In this document: one piece after another, positions 13,406 to 53,610 of the stretch
Position numbering within the stretch: position 1 is the stretch's first letter
Layout: the number at the start of each line of letters is the position of its first letter
Virus record (IMG/VR): IMGVR_UViG_3300045988_120055
Coordinates: 53,031-117,030 of that record
Source of the DNA: a virus
DNA: 64,000 nt
Direction: 5' to 3' (one strand)
Position numbers and translations under genes: made by a program
Notes under the pieces: generated by a model
Told to the model about the DNA's origin: nothing
What the model saw: the letters and a program-made list of their open reading frames with translations, nothing else
The model's database searches: none

Positions 13406-14614
13406 CTATTTCAGCAGATCATACATTTCTTTTAATCCATCATCGTCGACTTCACTAAGTTTTCCATACTGCTTAATGATTCCTTTGACTTTTGTTTTTA
13501 ATTCTGCGTCTTCACAAGTTTTACACAACTCTTTTACATGTTCTCTTAAATCTTCTGGATAGTTGTCTGATGTATCTTCATCAATATCATCAATAACATC
13601 TTCCATTAAATCTTCGTCAGCTTCTGTAATATCATCTTCAATAATATCATCGATGTCTTCCTCGATCTCATCTTCTGGTTCTGGCTGAGGAGTTGGCTTT
13701 TTAGTTTTTTTAGAAAGAACTGTTTTAGATTTCTCCATTCCGTCTTCTACCACTTCAATGAAATCTTCTCCCATATTTCCTTTGTCAAATACCATATATT
13801 CAGGAACTGCATCAGAAGCAAATCTACCACCAGCGTCAATTAATGTTGTTCCACGGAAATAAAGTTTTCTAATTTCATCTGTAGCATATCTCTTAGCTTT
13901 ATCACCTTCACCTCTGACTTCAACATTTCTGTCAATTACACCAGTGAAAGTTACATCAAAGATATCACCAAAAGCAGATTCATAAGCACTTACAAGATTG
14001 GATGTTAACTGCTGGTATCCGTCTTCTTCTAAGCCACCTTTTTCTCTGATAGTTTTGAATTTTGTATGAGCAATTCCCCAAACACCAATGCCAGCATCTT
14101 CGATATCACTCATGTAAGCTTTGATCATGTCTGCTGTATATCTCTGTCCTGCCTGATAGCCACCCATAGCAGCGTTGATAGTTTTGCACTTTTTCTGTCC
14201 TTCTTTATTGCTGATCCTGATTGTCTCTTCTTCAAATAATGGACAAATTTCATCAACGGTATCAAAACAAACCATCTGAATATTGTGTTTTACTGGAACA
14301 TATTCTGGTTTTCTCTTTTCATTGCGAACAATTTTGCCAGACTTATCTCTTTTGAATACTCTTTTGTTAATTAAGTATTCTTTTAACTCTACCGCATCTT
14401 CATATGAAGTAATACGCAGAGTGTTAATATTATCTAACATCCTTGTTCCTTTTTCGAATCCGCACTGTACGAGAAGTCCATATGACGGATCTCCATATTT
14501 TGCAACAATTACATCTCTGAACAATGTAGTTTTTCCGAACTTTTTAATTGATCTAAGATAGATTGACAGGTTTTTAATATCTGGTTTAATTTCGTTAATT
14601 ACTGGTAATTCCAT
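13406..14614 (-). CDS. hypothetical replication-module protein with extremely acidic C-terminal tail
   Basis: 402 aa, weak P-loop-like FGKTT, C-terminal DEIEEDIDDIIEDDITEADEDLMEDVIDDIDED; position between helicase and SSB-like gene suggests replication/recombination accessory role. Confidence 0.35.
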   Translation of the reverse strand: MELPVINEIKPDIKNLSIYLRSIKKFGKTTLFRDVIVAKYGDPSYGLLVQCGFEKGTRMLDNINTLRITSYEDAVELKEYLINKRVFKRDKSGKIVRNEKRKPEYVPVKHNIQMVCFDTVDEICPLFEEETIRISNKEGQKKCKTINAAMGGYQAGQRYTADMIKAYMSDIEDAGIGVWGIAHTKFKTIREKGGLEEDGYQQLTSNLVSAYESAFGDIFDVTFTGVIDRNVEVRGEGDKAKRYATDEIRKLYFRGTTLIDAGGRFASDAVPEYMVFDKGNMGEDFIEVVEDGMEKSKTVLSKKTKKPTPQPEPEDEIEEDIDDIIEDDITEADEDLMEDVIDDIDEDTSDNYPEDLREHVKELCKTCEDAELKTKVKGIIKQYGKLSEVDDDGLKEMYDLLK

Positions 14615-37739: not shown

Positions 37740-39809
37740 TTAAAATTTAATTTTAAGAACTCTTTCTGTTGCACCCTTGACTTTAACAATCACATCATCT
37801 CGCTTTGTAGAGCTGAAGCCAATTCCTGATAACTGGTTTGGATCATCTGCGACATGCATTTTGTTTCCTAAAGCCTCGAATACTCTCTTGTGCTGTACTA
37901 ATTCCTGCTTCAAAAACTCATTGAAGAATCCATTTGGAGTATCTTCATTTACACATCCGTTTAACATAAACAGATAATGTTTATGTCCAATACCTGTCTG
38001 CTCGTCCCAATAGTTAGGTGAATAACACATTACTGTTACTGGCACAAACTGATTTGTATTGATTCCCCAGATTTCTCTTGAAGATGTTGTTGATGGAAGT
38101 TTCTCTTTGATTGTGAATACTCCATCTTTTAATGTAACTGTAGCCACTGGAACATCTTCGTTCTGACGTAAAGGCTTATCATATTCAAATTCATAAATCT
38201 GTCCATCAAATTCAATCTCTGCTGTAAATCCAGAAACTCCATTTCTATGAGCAAAATTTCTTACGAAAAATTCATATTCTCCGTCAACCATTTTGGATTT
38301 ATCTGCCCATGTAATATTTTCTACGGCAGGCTCTCCTCTATGTGGATGAGTTACATCAACATCAAGGCTTCCACCAGTTGCATAATCATGCATTGAAGCA
38401 TAATAGATATGATGACGTGGAGTTCTGCAATGTGCATCAAAATCATCCTGATTCCAATCTGTATTTGCATTCCACTGAATTGAGAATCTTAAAACTCCAT
38501 CAACTGCACCACCTGCGTTCTTAACTCTTTCTTTCATTTCACTGTCTGTCATATTTCCTGAATATGCCCAGCTGAAAGGATTACTCCACTTCATCATGTT
38601 CTTAGCATCTTTATTTACAGGTGCGATCAGTGAAACCATATTCTTCTTGTGACGATTTTCAAACAGAACTTCTAATTCTTTTGCCGTTGGAAGTACATCT
38701 GATACGAATTTCTCTGCACTGATTTCTTCGACTTTAGAGAACTTCTTAGGATTTACAGCAACTTCCTTACTCATCTCATCGAAAATATCTAAACCGCCCT
38801 GAATACGTGGTGCTGCATCACGATTACAAAACAGGATATTGTTGACTGTAATATCATCAAGTTTCGCAAATCTACGCTGTAATGAATCCATATATCCTAA
38901 ATCAGTCACAGTTTTCTTTGCATCCTCAAGCATTTTCTTTGTAAAAATTGCCTTTGGTCGTTTGTAATTCGCAGGAGCTACAACATTTTCATAAGCCTTA
39001 ACCGCATTATCTAAGTCCATATCCTCACTGATATTTACAAGCAATGTACCAATACTATGGTTTCTAATACGACCAATTACATCTCCGATCGTCATGGCTT
39101 TTGCCCATGTGTATGTATCTTTCTCTTCATCGGATAAACTATTGTATTCTCGCTGATATTTTCTAAAGTCCTTTAAGATTCTTTCCCATTCCTGTCCTCT
39201 ATAAAGAGTATTTGAAGCGATCAGTTCTAATACCGTATCAACAGCTTCTTCTGTGATTTCATCAAGCGATCTTTTGAACACGCTCTTTCGATCTCTAACT
39301 TTTGCTTTTGCTGTAGGAATATCGGATTTTCTTTCTAGTAATCTCTCTGGAATCGGTGTATACATATGAGTCCATTTGATAATCTGCTTATCTTCTGTAT
39401 ACTCATTTGTACTTTTTACTCCAACTGTATTTGTAAAATGTCTCCAAATATCTTTGATTGGCTTTGATTCTACATATGTTCGTAAAGCATCAACTACTGG
39501 CTGAAATACGACATCATCAGTGTCGATCTCCCAGATCGTATGAATCTTACCGTCAACAATTGTCACAGCTCCACCGATTGTTTTAATAAAGTTTCGACAA
39601 TGACCACAGTCATATTCTCTTCGCTTGCGATACATTTTGTTAGTTCCTTCAGGGAAACTACTCAGATATACTTCCCAAAGTTCATCCTTATCAATATCGG
39701 TTTCATACAATGTAGAATTGTTTTTCTCTACATAGTCGAGCATTTTATTTAAACGCTCTGACAATTTGCTTAAAAAGTTACTCCAGCTTTCATTCATTGG
39801 TGTACACAT
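37740..39809 (-). CDS. large hypothetical protein (689 aa) with CxxC motif
   Basis: Long ORF; RKRREYDCGHCRNF; no family assigned. Confidence 0.45.
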   Translation of the reverse strand: MCTPMNESWSNFLSKLSERLNKMLDYVEKNNSTLYETDIDKDELWEVYLSSFPEGTNKMYRKRREYDCGHCRNFIKTIGGAVTIVDGKIHTIWEIDTDDVVFQPVVDALRTYVESKPIKDIWRHFTNTVGVKSTNEYTEDKQIIKWTHMYTPIPERLLERKSDIPTAKAKVRDRKSVFKRSLDEITEEAVDTVLELIASNTLYRGQEWERILKDFRKYQREYNSLSDEEKDTYTWAKAMTIGDVIGRIRNHSIGTLLVNISEDMDLDNAVKAYENVVAPANYKRPKAIFTKKMLEDAKKTVTDLGYMDSLQRRFAKLDDITVNNILFCNRDAAPRIQGGLDIFDEMSKEVAVNPKKFSKVEEISAEKFVSDVLPTAKELEVLFENRHKKNMVSLIAPVNKDAKNMMKWSNPFSWAYSGNMTDSEMKERVKNAGGAVDGVLRFSIQWNANTDWNQDDFDAHCRTPRHHIYYASMHDYATGGSLDVDVTHPHRGEPAVENITWADKSKMVDGEYEFFVRNFAHRNGVSGFTAEIEFDGQIYEFEYDKPLRQNEDVPVATVTLKDGVFTIKEKLPSTTSSREIWGINTNQFVPVTVMCYSPNYWDEQTGIGHKHYLFMLNGCVNEDTPNGFFNEFLKQELVQHKRVFEALGNKMHVADDPNQLSGIGFSSTKRDDVIVKVKGATERVLKIKF

Positions 39810-41170: not shown

Positions 41171-41635
41171 TTATTTCGTCAATTCATAAGGTGTTTTAAT
41201 ATTAAAATAATCTTCACGTTTGTATTTCCCAATTAATAAAGTAATGGTAACGTCTCGATCTAACGTATCAACAAATGAACGTTTACAATATCTATTACGA
41301 CCATTTCTTTCAACGTCAAATGAATCATAAATTCGTAAAATCCATCTTTCTCTATCCAACAGCGCTGAAATACTAAACATATAGATATTATCCAAATGTT
41401 TTTCTTCACAAAGTCTATAACGAACTCTTGGAACTACTTCTCTTGTGTGTAAGAGTATACTTCCTAAGTCTTCATTAATTACCACGTATGTTTTTTCTTT
41501 TCCATTTTTTCTATTTAAGACTTTGATACAATCTCCTGAATGTGGAGTATGTCTCATTTCATCTAGCTCAAAATATTTTTGTCCTAAATGCCCAAATTTT
41601 TGTATGTAAATGCCCATATTTCTCCTTTCTAACAT
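41171..41635 (-). CDS. hypothetical protein
   Basis: 154-aa ORF. Confidence 0.4.
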   Translation of the reverse strand: MLERRNMGIYIQKFGHLGQKYFELDEMRHTPHSGDCIKVLNRKNGKEKTYVVINEDLGSILLHTREVVPRVRYRLCEEKHLDNIYMFSISALLDRERWILRIYDSFDVERNGRNRYCKRSFVDTLDRDVTITLLIGKYKREDYFNIKTPYELTK

Positions 41636-41700: not shown

Positions 41701-42357
41701 CTACCCGATTATATTCTGGATCAGCTCATAATACTTTGTTCTACCGACATATTCATTCGGCTCTGAGCTTTGTAACTTCTTTTTCAATGTACCAATATCT
41801 TCTTTATTATTAATGCTTTCCTGCATTACTTCTACATATCGAATACATTTCTTAATCTGTGTATGTAGCTCTCTCATTGTCTTAAGATATCCAACAATTA
41901 CAGCTCTCTTCGCAGCATTGATTTTCTTTCCTTCAATTGCATGAAGAATATCGCTGATTGCAGAATCCGTGTAAGATAATGACTGTTCCATCTCAAATTT
42001 CTTCTGGCTTAACTCTTCGTAGTCATATGCCAAAAGACCTACTATAGCACGTTCTTCTGCTTCAATATCGTTTAGGATAGATTTATCCCATTCAAAGTCT
42101 TTAAAACAATTTCCGTTGCTTCTACGCTTACTTTCTCTACGAGACATAACATTTCCAGTGTTACTGCCATCAAATTCTTGGATATAAAAGCCTGATTTTA
42201 TCCACTTCATATCACGATTCTTAGATCCAAGAATACGCTTTGCTTGCTTTGATGTGAACTGAGTTGCCAGATCAAGACAATCTGCTTGATAGTATTTATT
42301 GGCTTGGTATGGATTTCGTGCTACATACTTACTTCCATCCGTAATTATGTATTTCAT
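41701..42357 (-). CDS. hypothetical protein
   Basis: 218-aa ORF; GGAGTG RBS. Confidence 0.4.
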   Translation of the reverse strand: MKYIITDGSKYVARNPYQANKYYQADCLDLATQFTSKQAKRILGSKNRDMKWIKSGFYIQEFDGSNTGNVMSRRESKRRSNGNCFKDFEWDKSILNDIEAEERAIVGLLAYDYEELSQKKFEMEQSLSYTDSAISDILHAIEGKKINAAKRAVIVGYLKTMRELHTQIKKCIRYVEVMQESINNKEDIGTLKKKLQSSEPNEYVGRTKYYELIQNIIG

Positions 42358-42403
42358 ACATCACTCCTATATTTAATTGTAGTTTTTTGGAAAAATTTTC
42401 ATG

Positions 42404-42432
42404 TTGACGAACATGTTTAGAATTGTTATAAT
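42404..42432 (+). promoter_or_regulatory. near-consensus sigma-A promoter TTGACG-17-TATAAT on the plus strand
   Basis: -35 at 42404-42409, 17-bp spacer, -10 at 42427-42432; no plus-strand protein gene downstream. Confidence 0.5.
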
Positions 42433-42439
42433 GATTTTA

Positions 42440-42535
42440 AGGATATTATTATCCTTTCAGATTAAACAATTCTAAATATCAAATTCGATTTTCTATCGTG
42501 CTGCCAACACGGTAGATTCAAAAAATCTTTTTTTG
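42440..42535 (+). ncRNA. candidate ~95-nt small RNA between promoter and intrinsic terminator
   Basis: Hairpin AAGGATA-TTAT-TATCCTT (42441-42458); terminal hairpin CTATCGTG-CTGCCAA-CACGGTAG (42493-42515) followed by AGATT-CAAAA-AATCT and TTTTTT (42529-42534). Confidence 0.4.
42493..42534 (+). terminator. rho-independent terminator of the candidate sRNA
   Basis: 8-bp GC-containing stem, then short A/T stem and T6 tract. Confidence 0.45.
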
Positions 42536-42550
42536 TTATCTATGATTTGT

Positions 42551-42916
42551 TTAGTTGAAATTTTTAGTTTGTGTGAAAGTAGAAGTTTTACCAAAGACTT
42601 CTGCTTTCTTTTTTATTGTCTGTATTTTTATGCCAACATTGTATCTCTCTTTGTATGTAAATTGCAGGCATTTGATTATGTCAAATATGTCGTCCTGCCT
42701 AATATGAGAGAACAAATTCTCATCTTGAATAAATTCGATCCAATGATATGAAAGATCTTTATCTTTGCCATAGATCTTCATCTTTCTATCATCTGCTCGA
42801 ATCTTATATTCGCTCAGAAACCACGATGACATTTCTGATGAGTGTAAATCAAGTACATCAATATGCATTTGATTTGATTGATTCGCTGCTAACATTTCTA
42901 ATATTTGATTGTCCAT
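42551..42916 (-). CDS. hypothetical protein
   Basis: 121-aa ORF. Confidence 0.4.
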   Translation of the reverse strand: MDNQILEMLAANQSNQMHIDVLDLHSSEMSSWFLSEYKIRADDRKMKIYGKDKDLSYHWIEFIQDENLFSHIRQDDIFDIIKCLQFTYKERYNVGIKIQTIKKKAEVFGKTSTFTQTKNFN

Positions 42917-42930
42917 ACATATACCTTCCT

Positions 42931-43959
42931 TTATTCTGCCATGATTTGATGTACACGATAATTCTTATAGTCCTCATCTTTATATAAATAACCAATAGTT
43001 TTACCAATTACAGTTTGACGATCACTAAATTGTTTCTTTTTTAATCTATATGATATATAATAATTATAATAAAATTTAATTGCAATTTCACTAAATTGAC
43101 GTGCGATTACAGATCGTGCGATTCCTTCTTTTGATTTAATATAATACAAATCTGCAATTGCCTTGATATCCATTTTAGATTTTAAATATTGTATAAAACC
43201 AGAATTAATAACATCAATGGTTGTCAATTTTTCATAAGATAAAGTGTTACCAGTTAATTCTAATTGAGACTGCACATTAGTATATATCCTCTTTTGCTCT
43301 GCTTGATATTCTTCTATATTATTACATTTTTTTCGTGGTATTAATACAAAATCATCATATATATTCGTATCTCCCATTTTCAATTTATATTCATTCAATG
43401 TCTCGATAAAATCTTTGGAGACTGGTTTCCCAAAAATTGTTAAATCATTTTGATTAATATCTGAGAATTTTAGATTTCTTAACTCCTTTCCATTTATCCC
43501 ATTATATAAACTCACAATGTGAAATCTAGTATTCAATTTGGTATCGGCTGATGCATTGCACGACATCAGATTCGAAATAAACGCATTTATTTTATCTGGT
43601 GTAACATAATTAACATTAACTCTATTTGAAAAATATATATCAACTGCTAATTGCAAGTTTATAAATTTATCATTAACAAATGGATTATATTTAATGTAAT
43701 TTTGTTCATATGCATAAGTATATAGTTTGACGAGCTGGTCATATCTTTTTTTAATAGAATTCATACTTTTGGTTTTTTTACCTCTAGTATCTGATAATAT
43801 AGCCTCTTGTATTGTACCTGGTGCATACGTTAACCCAGATTCATTGTCGTCCGCAATATCAGAATCTAATAACCAATTCCATGTTGGGCGACGTGATTCT
43901 GATACGTGAGAATCTATATAATTTTGTATCAATTCTTTATTATTCATAATGTTCTCCAT
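42931..43959 (-). CDS. hypothetical protein (342 aa)
   Basis: Long ORF directly downstream of the MazF-like gene; no catalytic motif recognised. Confidence 0.4.
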   Translation of the reverse strand: MENIMNNKELIQNYIDSHVSESRRPTWNWLLDSDIADDNESGLTYAPGTIQEAILSDTRGKKTKSMNSIKKRYDQLVKLYTYAYEQNYIKYNPFVNDKFINLQLAVDIYFSNRVNVNYVTPDKINAFISNLMSCNASADTKLNTRFHIVSLYNGINGKELRNLKFSDINQNDLTIFGKPVSKDFIETLNEYKLKMGDTNIYDDFVLIPRKKCNNIEEYQAEQKRIYTNVQSQLELTGNTLSYEKLTTIDVINSGFIQYLKSKMDIKAIADLYYIKSKEGIARSVIARQFSEIAIKFYYNYYISYRLKKKQFSDRQTVIGKTIGYLYKDEDYKNYRVHQIMAE

Positions 43960-43961
43960 TT

Positions 43962-44411
43962 CTAGGATGCCATTGCATTCATGTACGATAACATGCCGTT
44001 TTGTATTAAAATGCCATGTCCTATTTTTAACATTAAAGATAGATCAGATATTCTTCCCCAATACTCTAAAAGATTATTCTTTGGAATTGTTCTTCCTTGC
44101 TCTAAATACACTTGTGATACCATTTTTAATCCATTACTGGTATTTGGATAAATGGTCACATGTGTCGGTATCCAGTTCCTTAATTTTTTTGTAATTGGAT
44201 ACACGTTAATCTCTGTGCTCGTATTGTTACAAATATTATTAGAATAGACAATAACTGGTCTTTTCCCATGCAAGATATGGCTACCTTCGATTTTCGGCAA
44301 ATCTGCAAAATATATTCCCCAAACTTGAGGATTTTGATATTTACCATATACATATTCTTTTCTTTTTCTGTTATCGTTTCCTTTTCTTTCTTTGTTAGTA
44401 TATCCGTTCAT
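43962..44411 (-). CDS. MazF/PemK-family endoribonuclease toxin-like protein with K/R-rich N-terminal extension
   Basis: GIYFADLPKIEGSHILHGKRPVIVYSNNICNNTSTEINVYPITKK...PTHVTI fits the PemK/MazF pattern (G.E..g.RPvlVvS....N......v.P.Ts). Start moved to ATG 44411 (GAGGGA RBS); the track ATG 44456 coincides with the predicted TSS. Confidence 0.6.
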   Translation of the reverse strand: MNGYTNKERKGNDNRKRKEYVYGKYQNPQVWGIYFADLPKIEGSHILHGKRPVIVYSNNICNNTSTEINVYPITKKLRNWIPTHVTIYPNTSNGLKMVSQVYLEQGRTIPKNNLLEYWGRISDLSLMLKIGHGILIQNGMLSYMNAMAS

Positions 44412-44462
44412 TTTTACGTCCCTCAACTTTCCCCAGTTGTATTTTTTTGTTTTCATGAATTA

Positions 44463-44500
44463 AATATACCATACTTTTTGCACCCTGTCAATAAGTGCAA
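44463..44500 (-). promoter_or_regulatory. sigma-A-type promoter TTGACA-17-TATATT inside palindrome TTGCACC-N9-AGTGCAA (copy 2 of duplicated 48-bp element)
   Basis: 47 of 48 nt identical to 1420-1467; -35 at 44486-44491, -10 at 44463-44468. Confidence 0.55.
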
Positions 44501-52213: not shown

Positions 52214-53308
52214 CTACTCTTCTGAAATAATTTCCACCGCAGCTTCATAAAATCTATTATATAAAGTTGCATTTGTTTTAATAAGCTGAGATTTAGACAG
52301 TCCATGAGCATACTCATCCCAGTTAACGCCATTCTCTGTCATCTTAGTATAGATTTTCCGATAAACAGAAGTTCCACCTTTAGACTTATTTCCAATATGA
52401 TTAGCATAATTGGTAATCTTGATCTTCATTTCTTCCCAATCAGGCTGTGCATTTTCTTTTCTGAACTGTCGCAGAAGTTTTTCCAATGAATTAACTAGCA
52501 GATCAGGGTATTTATCATAACAAAGGTCAATTGTTGGGACATTACCTCTTTCTCCAATATTATACTTCTCTTTGTATTCTTTTCGATCCTGTTCCCACAC
52601 AATCCCATATGTGTTGGTAAGATACCTGTATGCCTCTCTAAGAATATCTCTAGTAGTGGTTCCTAGTTCGTCAGATTCTTTTAGAATATCATCAATGATA
52701 GAGTAGACATTAGATTTCCATTCATTAAGTTTGTATTCTGCAATAACGCTTTCCGTATCTACTACTGGAATATCTTTCGTAGGTTTACCGATCTGCTTAT
52801 ACAGTTCTTTCCGTTCGGCTTTCATTTCTTTAACAATATCTGCCAGCTGATTAAATCCCTTGATAGTAACCTTATACAGGCGTTCATTGTTTCTTTCCAT
52901 CTGCTTCATAAGTTCTGTCTGCTCTGTAAAAAATTGCTCCACTGTTGTTACAGGAGTGCCTGTTCTTAATTTTCCATGACGATAAGCTCCAATCACATCC
53001 CATACCCAATCCATAAAGGCATCAGCTTTGGGCTGTCTACTTCTTCTACAAATTTCATAAATGCCACGTTCATTATAGATATAACTAGAATAAGATTTTC
53101 CATCAGTTGTTTCCAATTTGGTAACAACTGAATCTCTATCTAGTCTTTCTTTATTGGCATCGTGAATTTTTGCAATGGCGACTCTAGGATCTTTATATTC
53201 TAATGCAAGTCCAATCTGTTGCCTGCTCATCCACAACTGATCGTCAGCACTATAAAAATCACACGTTATATCGTTAAAATTTTCCGTTTTTACTAACTGT
53301 ATGTTCAT
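52214..53308 (-). CDS. Bro-N domain phage antirepressor-like protein
   Basis: Bro-N signature ...LWMSRQQIGLALEYKDPRVAIAKIHD...SYIYNERGIYEICRRSRQPKADAFMDWVWDVI. Confidence 0.6.
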   Translation of the reverse strand: MNIQLVKTENFNDITCDFYSADDQLWMSRQQIGLALEYKDPRVAIAKIHDANKERLDRDSVVTKLETTDGKSYSSYIYNERGIYEICRRSRQPKADAFMDWVWDVIGAYRHGKLRTGTPVTTVEQFFTEQTELMKQMERNNERLYKVTIKGFNQLADIVKEMKAERKELYKQIGKPTKDIPVVDTESVIAEYKLNEWKSNVYSIIDDILKESDELGTTTRDILREAYRYLTNTYGIVWEQDRKEYKEKYNIGERGNVPTIDLCYDKYPDLLVNSLEKLLRQFRKENAQPDWEEMKIKITNYANHIGNKSKGGTSVYRKIYTKMTENGVNWDEYAHGLSKSQLIKTNATLYNRFYEAAVEIISEE

Positions 53309-53577
53309 TCTTCATCTTCCTTTCTAAACTGTCTCATTTTTCTCTACACTCATTATTTTTGTATAACTGTATTCCGTAAACCAATAGGAATAAAATCAAC
53401 ATTTAATTCCAACTATTAGTGTGCCAATCCTAATAGAAACCTATTCTATTCCTATTAGTTCTCTATGTAATTAACACCTTACCTATTAACAATTCTATGC
53501 TTAGTTAATCATTAATTTGTGTATAATAAATTTGACAAAGAACCGACCTGCCAAATCGGTTCTCGTCAAATATTTCC

Positions 53578-53610
53578 GTAAAATAAAAAGAACCTTCCGC
53601 TCGGTTCTTT
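53578..53610 (-). terminator. rho-independent terminator
   Basis: Minus strand AAAGAACC-GAGCGGAA-GGTTCTTT followed by TTATTTT; a second perfect 8-bp hairpin AGAACCGA-CCTGCCAAA-TCGGTTCT at 53539-53563. Confidence 0.5.

Follow-up and report, generated by a model that had tools for sequence, protein, structure and literature searches.

A very probable non-coding RNA gene with three covarying hairpins, and a likely cis-antisense role, in a lineage of large gut phages

To our knowledge, few regulatory RNAs of phages are known beyond the model systems (OOP of lambda, sar of P22, c4 of P1, and the SR RNAs of SPbeta), and almost none have come from uncultivated gut phages. The small antisense RNA sar of P22 is made from a promoter inside the intercistronic region of a phage regulatory operon, arc-ant of immI, and covers the ribosome-binding site (RBS) of ant. 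The OOP RNA of lambda has its own promoter and a terminator in the C-terminal coding region of the convergent cII gene, and the hybrid of the two RNAs is cleaved by RNase III (PMC5869508). SR6 of SPbeta overlaps both the 3' end of yonT and the 5' end of yoyJ, which lie on one polycistronic mRNA, and promotes a decay that depends on RNase III (PMC5848175). SPbeta-like phages also carry the SroF/MrpR-Sar lysogeny module, and a MazF-type RNase shares in the same biology in Phi3T (bioRxiv 10.1101/2025.11.27.690993; PMC10516654). Here, a plus-strand unit is described from a stretch of 64,000 nucleotides (nt), positions 53,031 to 117,030 of the IMG/VR virus record IMGVR_UViG_3300045988_120055, which is called the window below. 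It consists of a promoter and a predicted small RNA (sRNA) with three stem-loops (SL1, SL2, and SL3), and it begins in the 193-nt gap between two leftward open reading frames (ORFs) for proteins of 218 and 121 amino acids (aa). The locus is very probably an independent non-coding plus-strand gene for an expressed, structured RNA. With more modest confidence, we propose that it mainly regulates, in cis and as an antisense RNA, the 121-aa gene at its 3' end and at its junction with the 218-aa gene.

In its geometry, the locus resembles pO-oop-tO of lambda. Both RNAs are short and non-coding, have a promoter of their own, and converge with a gene of a regulatory region. In both cases, as the coordinates in Table 1 place it for the window, the 3' end lies inside the C-terminal coding region of the opposing gene, with an overlap of 52 nt in lambda and of 64 nt here. 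There is no homology in sequence or structure. The RNA described here measures ~176 nt and has three hairpins, whereas OOP is much shorter; 112 nt of it cover the intercistronic region rather than an ORF, the overlapped protein is not CII-like, and the phage is an uncultivated gut phage of roughly 160 kb with signals of the Gram-positive type. SR6, SR4, and RatA of the Bacillus subtilis SPbeta and skin prophages are likewise antisense RNAs of ~100-200 nt in a Firmicute-type setting. SR6 also sits at a polycistronic junction, where it overlaps the 3' end of the upstream gene and reaches toward the downstream gene. The small hydrophobic toxin (38-59 aa) of these systems is absent from the locus, however, and, unlike SR6, to which it has no sequence similarity, the RNA does not reach the downstream RBS. 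In comparison with sar of P22, relatives of the locus carry an antirepressor-type Bro-N/ANT gene downstream, but 82 nt separate the RNA from the next start codon, and its size and fold differ. Because of the match in geometry with OOP and SR6, a cis-antisense function is favored.

The promoter of the unit is of the sigma-70/sigma-A type, i.e., it has a TTGACA-like -35 hexamer and a TATAAT -10 hexamer 16-18 nt apart, with the optional TGn in front of the latter. An initial annotation of the window, made from the letters alone, had placed a consensus promoter at 42404-42432; these positions proved to be exact, and the TG extension can now be added. It is the sole plus-strand site in the 64 kb with at least 11 of 12 matches, the TG, and a good -10. 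The only other plus-strand site with TG at this level, at 14563, has the defective -10 TTTAAT. First-order Markov simulations gave a chance expectation, per strand and per 64 kb, of 2.3 sites with at least 11 matches and of 0.165 such sites with TG. Taken by itself, the match is suggestive; it becomes convincing because of its placement and its conservation. Across 35 distinct sequences of the locus, the -35 reads TTGAC[G/T], while TGTTATAAT, the 17-nt spacing, the TG, and TATAAT are all invariant, and the hexamers are also kept in relatives with flanking genes that are 60-75% identical. Conservation of the 3-kb locus peaks at 42370-42430, with 90-97% identity versus 55-75% in the flanking genes (pairwise comparisons with five divergent relatives). 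The A+T-rich block located there is a candidate UP element or operator; read on the minus strand, it is the leader beside the Shine-Dalgarno sequence (SD) of the 218-aa gene. In loci L111-L113, in which the 218-aa gene is truncated or replaced, the promoter, the A+T-rich block, and the RNA are intact, and the unit thus travels with the 121-aa gene. Transcription is predicted to start at A42439, 7 nt after the -10, judging from the spacing and from the start of SL1 at this place: in every clade, the SL1 stem begins 6-7 nt after the -10. A LexA/Cheo box over the -35 (CGAACATGTTTA) was considered and, judged by eye, rejected, as its spacing is wrong and CGAAC has become CTTAC in L061 and L111.

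Downstream of the promoter, RNAalifold, applied to 12 representative sequences, returned exactly the three stem-loops, with nine pairs compensated on both sides. In a MAFFT alignment (A1), 98.4% of the cells were paired and eight pairs had changed on both sides (0/500 shuffles; slid controls, 45-53%). A covariance-model alignment (A5) gave 98.9% and nine pairs (0/500 shuffles; slid controls, 43-53%). Folding of the single sequence yielded z = -3.3 for a 98-nt version and z = -7.2 for the 180 nt of 42439-42618. The long hairpin of the minimum free energy (MFE) fold of the single sequence was rejected: 89.8% of its cells were paired, and several of its pairs were broken in 13-20 of the 35 sequences; the core of this hairpin (42461-69/42547-55) is equivocal.

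Each of the three stem-loops has variants that preserve its pairing. SL1 is the hairpin AAGGATA-TTAT-TATCCTT of the initial annotation, confirmed at 42439-42456. Its pair A43-U52 has become G-C in six sequences, U·G variants are also present, and in L061 and L111 a 31-nt insertion creates a 12-bp stem with a 24-nt loop. The 5'-terminal position of SL1 points to a stabilizing role. In SL2, six of the nine pairs have changed on both sides and 99.7% of the cells are paired; in L114 and L115, for example, CUAUCGUG/CACGGUAG has been replaced by CUGGUGUG/CACACCAG. The 7-nt loop of SL2, CUGCCAA (42501-42507), is invariant across the relatives, as is the 13-mer ACAAUUCUAAAUA (42466-42478) in the linker between SL1 and SL2. 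SL3 contains two fixed U·G pairs, and all of its variants (UA to UG, UG to UA or CG, and AU to GC) are compatible with pairing on the plus strand. The 121-aa homologue in L061 stops inside the SL3 loop; the 5' arm of SL3, which is non-coding there, has still been kept, and SL3 is therefore not a mere by-product of protein conservation.

The loop of SL1 showed a variation of its own. About half of the relatives have ATAA instead of TTAT, the exact reverse complement (window 42446-42460), and in these same relatives a block swap from TCAG to ATCT is seen directly 3' of the SL1 stem. The inversion looks like a quasipalindrome template-switch event rather than a series of point mutations.

As any DNA hairpin exists on both strands, the locus might in principle hold no RNA gene but DNA-level sites (an origin, an operator cluster, or a linker for recombination) or features folded in the minus-strand mRNA, next to a promoter match that is fortuitous. 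Inverted repeats are indeed nested in the region, one of 15 nt (42413-27/42465-79) having its arms on either side of the -10 and the +1, and in locus L039 a mosaic junction is located at the left edge. The paired columns, however, contain 101 G·U cells, which pair only in plus-strand RNA, against four A·C cells, the equivalent of G·U on the minus strand. The folded RNA is, because of this asymmetry, that of the plus strand. The stems have changed in sequence yet kept plus-strand pairing, and their minus-strand versions fold markedly worse (-10.6 versus -18.4 kcal/mol for SL3 and -8.8 versus -10.8 kcal/mol for SL2). Moreover, neither the SL1 palindrome nor the repeat motif is a recurrent element at other places, and the spacing, TG, and hexamers of the promoter are invariant except for the last base of the -35. 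Selection on a plus-strand structure rules out a purely DNA-level palindrome as well as a minus-strand mRNA structure, and an explanation without an RNA gene is highly improbable. The 15-nt inverted repeat itself may be an operator or operator set. A degenerate third copy of its motif is present at 42368-42380, beside the SD of the 218-aa gene. A repeated operator was looked for and rejected, as the SL1 palindrome and TTTAGAATTGTT occur elsewhere in the window at chance frequency.

The comparison also changed the view of where the RNA ends. The initial annotation had read SL2, followed by a short A/T stem and T6, as the terminator of a ~95-nt RNA confined to the gap. The hairpin is present at 42493-42515 and the A/T stem follows it, but the run is one of seven T residues (42528-42534), and SL2 is better seen as an internal stem-loop. 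Eleven nt, bridged by the weak A/U lower stem alone, separate its 9-bp stem from the U7. The short stem that follows SL2 is GATT/AATC or A6/T7, and the whole terminator-like site amounts to -11.8 kcal/mol. The T-run has been degraded to TTTTGTTG in L058, and L114 and L115 have none adjacent to SL2. No other plus-strand terminator-like site in the window is as strong as SL3 with its U6, 40 nt beyond the T7, and the stem and U-run of SL3 have been retained in all relatives. Thus, SL3 has the conserved, stable stem directly followed by a U-run that is expected of an intrinsic terminator, and SL2 with its T-run does not. Since the conserved terminator is SL3 with U6, the RNA is predicted to measure ~176 nt (42439 to ~42614) and to run into the 3' end of the 121-aa ORF. 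It is possible that SL2, the lower stem, and the U7 act as a leaky, clade-specific terminator that gives rise to an extra form of ~95 nt in the clade of the window.

No plus-strand ORF is conserved in the unit: the sole ATG, at 42543, has been destroyed in many relatives. Two plus-strand ORFs of 72 and 24 aa were rejected as peptides, as they lack an SD, extend across the terminator or the promoter, and have lost their starts in relatives. The self-contained plus-strand unit without an ORF that the initial annotation had put forward was thus borne out by comparative evidence, namely the kept promoter, the covariation of the hairpins, and the G·U asymmetry. The check proposed with it, conservation and covariation in related phages, gave a promoter kept in all 35 distinct sequences and eight to nine pairs changed on both sides.

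A scan of the whole window against Rfam 15 at gathering thresholds gave nothing but a tRNA at 30299-30436 and no family for the sRNA; in a permissive scan of 42380-42640, the best match had an E-value of 0.54 and 18 bits versus a threshold of 95. No DNA match to the window was found in GenBank phages or in plasmids. A tblastn search with the 342-aa protein encoded upstream of the 121-aa gene and with the 121-aa protein gave no match in phages, and the 342-aa protein had none in plasmids. With the covariance model R1, the window and each related locus gave a single copy, and unrelated control loci gave none; no paralogue beyond this single copy was detected in the window by blastn-short or R1. 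The sRNA is a new family, of a kind, the phage cis-antisense RNA, that is already known. Searching with the 121-aa protein identified 54 IMG/VR contigs, mostly of 80-170 kb, all of which carry the intergenic block at 90-100% identity, and distant homologues of the protein (59-76% identity) led to further contigs with related loci. A pattern scan of metagenomes added ~34 copies on contigs of up to 218 kb, several of them labelled human gut. Altogether, >80 contigs of ~80-220 kb from gut metagenomes and viromes carry the sRNA, at one copy per genome. These loci share a gene order of integrase, metallophosphatase (in most loci), a 106-aa gene, the PemK-like gene, a ~340-aa gene, a ~121-aa gene, the gap, a ~216-aa gene, and Bro-N/ANT. 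A prophage copy that would reveal the host was sought in genome contigs; the one match, in a coding region of a GC-rich Planctomycete, was a chance match.

Opposite the RNA, the genes for a PemK/MazF-like protein, the 342-aa protein, and the 121-aa protein follow one minus-strand promoter. No minus-strand terminator-like site was found between 42550 and 42358. The one candidate promoter for the 218-aa gene, a 9/12 site at 42476-42448, was rejected because its -10 falls in the covarying SL1 stem and the site is not conserved. With neither a terminator nor a conserved promoter on the minus strand of the gap, the operon mRNA probably reads through into the 218-aa gene, and such an mRNA would be perfectly complementary to the whole sRNA (42439-42614). 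An inc18 RNAIII-type countertranscript that works by attenuation was rejected, as 42550-42358 holds no minus-strand terminator and there is no plasmid match.

For a cis-antisense RNA in this position, we infer the following course of events, from the transcript and its ends to the read-through of the operon, the involvement of RNase III, and the biological outcome. Host RNA polymerase would start the plus-strand RNA at the near-consensus extended -10 promoter, with the A+T-rich block upstream. The mRNA of the operon would extend into the 218-aa gene, and the sRNA would pair with the 121/218-aa junction and with the 3' end of the 121-aa gene. Pairing would probably begin by a loop-loop contact at SL2, where the loop on the mRNA side, UUGGCAG, contains a UUGG of the YUNR type. 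Cleavage of this long duplex by RNase III would follow and would lower or uncouple expression of the 121-aa gene and the genes downstream, and convergent transcription from the strong promoter may add transcriptional interference.

Could transcription itself be what matters? The unit would then be an interference or insulator module that blocks read-through of the PemK operon into the 218-aa gene and the genes beyond it. The near-consensus promoter with the A+T-rich block is the most conserved part of the locus, the gap lacks a minus-strand terminator, and the downstream genes in relatives include Bro-N/ANT antirepressor-like proteins, all of which would suit such a module. Interference alone, however, would not select three covarying hairpins, G·U pairing on the plus strand, a 5'-terminal stem, and an invariant loop. 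As the sole explanation it is decidedly unlikely, albeit that it can coexist with an antisense mechanism.

That the SL2 loop and the 13-mer never vary bears on a further explanation, in which the sRNA acts mainly in trans, on phage or host mRNAs or on a protein, by way of CUGCCAA and/or ACAAUUCUAAAUA, and its overlap with the 121-aa gene is incidental. Both elements are invariant while six of nine SL2 stem pairs change, and pairing in cis needs no such thing. In addition, the SL2 loop shares 7 nt of complementarity with that of a strong minus-strand terminator hairpin (53539-53563), the same loop match that the initial annotation had reported as a recurrence of CTGCCAA. The match is there, but a link between the two hairpins did not hold up. 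As a count, the recurrence at 53548 is not significant: CTGCCAA occurs nine times in the window versus 5.0 expected, a number reached in 8 of 100 shuffles and thus at chance. Furthermore, one contig has UUUUGCAGG in the loop at 535xx with an unaltered sRNA loop. The 535xx hairpin is otherwise uninformative for the loop link because it is nearly invariant in close relatives. Duplex energies of the sRNA against the 82 translation-initiation regions of the window were no better than the shuffled background, with the top scores coming from a U-rich stretch, and the sRNA unit always accompanies the 121-aa gene. An action mainly in trans is therefore considered unlikely.

Several points weigh against the cis-antisense assignment or against the RNA gene underlying it. 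The transcription start site, the 3' end, and the abundance of the sRNA are predictions. Since the lineage is fairly narrow, several of the compensatory changes are shared by descent; they amount not to 35 events but to three to five independent clades. A mosaic junction in L039 (42362-69), at which identity rises from ~75% to ~97% just where the 218-aa gene starts, raises the possibility that the promoter block is so conserved partly because it serves as a recombination linker. Any effect on translation of the 218-aa gene would have to be indirect, as the 5' end of the RNA lies 82 nt upstream of its start codon and leaves the RBS uncovered. Lastly, cis pairing does not explain why the SL2 loop and the 13-mer are invariant, as complementarity to the opposite strand survives any mutation. 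Together with the inverted repeat, these two elements hint at an extra partner, be it a protein, a target in trans, the kinetics of a kissing interaction, or an operator or other DNA-level site.

The features of the locus, together with two further sites in the window, are collected in Table 1.

Table 1. Positions in the window of the plus-strand unit, the genes around it, and two other sites
Feature	Position	Strand	Remarks
A+T-rich block TATATTTAATTGTAGTTTTTTGGAAAAATTTTCATG	42368..42403	+	Just 5' of -35; within the most conserved 60 nt
Promoter of the sigma-70/sigma-A type	42404..42432	+	TTGACG-17-TGtTATAAT
-35, TTGACG	42404-42409	+	17-nt spacer to -10
Extended -10, TGtTATAAT	TG 42424-25, TATAAT 42427-42432	+	11/12 consensus match plus TG
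15-nt inverted repeat, left arm ATGTTTAGAATTGTT	42413..42427	.	In promoter spacer
15-nt inverted repeat, right arm	42465-42479	.	+27 to +41 of the RNA; 93% complementary; contains 13-mer ACAAUUCUAAAUA
SL1, AAGGATA-TTAT-TATCCTT	42439..42456	+	Perfect 7-bp stem, loop UUAU, -6.7 kcal/mol; at the predicted +1
A/U-rich single-stranded linker	42457..42491	+	Unpaired in consensus fold
SL2, CTATCGTG-CTGCCAA-CACGGTAG	42493-42515	+	One U·G pair; extends to 9 bp, 42492-42516
U7 run	42528-42534	+	After SL2 and weak lower stem GAUUUU 42487-92 / AAAAUC 42522-27
Antisense part of the predicted RNA	42551..42614	+	64 nt, opposite the 3' end of the 121-aa gene (last 20 codons plus stop)
SL3, GAAAGTAGAAGTTTT-ACCA-AAGACTTCTGCTTTC	42575..42608	+	15 bp, then U6 42609-42614; -18.4 kcal/mol
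218-aa gene	41701..42357	-	Downstream of the gap; lineage-restricted family
121-aa gene	42551..42916	-	Convergent with the RNA; last gene of the operon; lineage-restricted family
342-aa recombinase-like gene	42931-43959	-	Integrase SAM-like N-terminus (weak Pfam), PHROG integrase match
PemK/MazF-like gene	43962-44491 region	-	Pfam PemK_toxin, E 2e-15; heads the operon
Operon promoter, TTGACA-17-TGgTATATT	44491-44463	-	Precedes the PemK-like, 342-aa, and 121-aa genes
Second plus-strand unit	30005-30292	+	Promoter TTTACA-17-TGcTACAAT, SD, helix-turn-helix gene, terminator 30270-30292
Two tandem intrinsic terminators, related stems AAAGAACC…GGTTCTTT and GAGAACCGA…TCGGTTCTT	53530-53605	-	After a small membrane-protein ORF

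The families to which homologues of the neighboring genes belong are tiny and lineage-restricted. The 121-aa protein has no match in Pfam, PHROG, PADLOC, NCBIfam, or PDB, and its AlphaFold2 (AF2) model is poor, with a predicted local distance difference test (pLDDT) score of 50. The AF2 model of the 342-aa protein is poor as well (pLDDT 54); Foldseek gave weak matches to tyrosine recombinases (E 0.017), and a sequence match in PDB was not found. This protein evolves fast, with 55-67% identity among relatives in which the sRNA is 65-95% identical. Its box I reads NGINGKEL (…YNGINGKELRNLKFSDI…) where recombinases carry the catalytic Arg, and, as far as can be read from the sequence, it may be a recombinase-like protein that binds DNA but is catalytically dead. 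A recombinase-like protein apparently without the Arg of box I, followed by a small protein, recalls the SroF/MrpR-Sar module. The likeness is a lead to a possible homology, and the word 'antisense' occurs 0 times in the text of the SroF/Sar paper.

Two further observations concern the genes of this region. The listed ATG of the PemK-like ORF, at 44456, is just 6 nt after the -10 (44468-44463) of the operon promoter, and the true start is more likely at about 44411, with the SD GAGGGA. In many relatives, the 154-aa gene (41171..41635) has been replaced, e.g., by Bro-N/ANT antirepressor-like genes, with junctions at 41171/41634.

The PemK-like gene raises the possibility that the sRNA is an antitoxin, either in the manner of type I systems, against a toxin of the overlapped operon, or as a decoy or inhibitor of the PemK/MazF-like RNase. 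A gene with a PemK_toxin match heads the operon, no MazE-like antitoxin gene is recognizable beside it, and the convergent geometry with overlapping 3' ends is that of the type I antitoxins of SPbeta and skin (PMC5848175). In or beside the overlap, however, there is no ORF for a small hydrophobic toxin (<60 aa). Between 42358 and 42620, the minus strand holds no ORF of 20 aa or more apart from the 121-aa gene and two ORFs nested in it in other frames, none of which is a conserved small membrane peptide, and the overlapped 121-aa protein is hydrophilic. The RNA lacks the tandem direct repeats of type III (ToxI-like) RNAs, which lie directly upstream of their toxin gene and in its orientation; it is 1.4 kb from the PemK gene and converges with it, and PADLOC gave no matches. 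A role as antitoxin is thus very unlikely.

Outside the locus, nearly all genes of the window point leftward, as the initial annotation had it, but the minus-strand character is not complete: the second plus-strand unit carries a 67-aa gene of the Cro/C1-type helix-turn-helix (HTH) family at 30055-30258 (Pfam HTH_26, E 7.5e-14). A strong minus-strand promoter at 29973-29945 points away from this unit. The Rfam tRNA match nearby (30299-30436, minus strand) scores 46.4 bits over 138 nt, and ARAGORN finds no tRNA there. On inspection by eye, the sequence has kept the acceptor, D, and T arms and an anticodon stem (GGCAA/TTGCC), with an A/T-rich insert of ~67 nt in place of the anticodon loop. It is thus either a disrupted tRNA or a tRNA gene that carries a short insert of an unusual type. 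The second of the two tandem terminators at 53530-53605 (-19.5 kcal/mol) is the hairpin of the loop match mentioned above; its loop, UUUGGCAGG, could pair with CUGCCAA through 7 nt and reads UUUUGCAGG in one relative. A 689-aa protein (37740-39809, minus strand; phrog_1735) has ~56% identity to proteins of Bacillus phages of ~155-165 kb (Tsarbomba and BCP78 types) and of the Clostridioides phage pCD1602_4. This match, the sole link to cultured phages found, suggests a large Firmicute phage.

In conclusion, the evidence for a new RNA family, one that neither Rfam nor GenBank contains, is good; its gene is placed in an accessory or regulatory module beside MazF-like and dead-recombinase-like genes. 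The locus also illustrates the limit of reading a single sequence: the presumed terminator is an internal stem-loop, and the real one is hidden in the next ORF. A wider picture, which we regard as quite unlikely in its entirety, is that, in a large group of human-gut phages, the RNA belongs to a switch that controls either lysis versus lysogeny or a toxin. A constitutive sRNA would then govern the PemK/MazF-like RNase, a dead recombinase-like repressor resembling SroF/MrpR, and its 121-aa partner; the SL2 loop and the 13-mer would bind a protein or a trans target, and the inverted repeat would serve as an operator for feedback by the recombinase-like protein. For annotators, the locus is a concrete non-coding gene to add. 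With one promoter and three hairpins, it also offers a compact experimental handle on the control of this module in the phage lineage.

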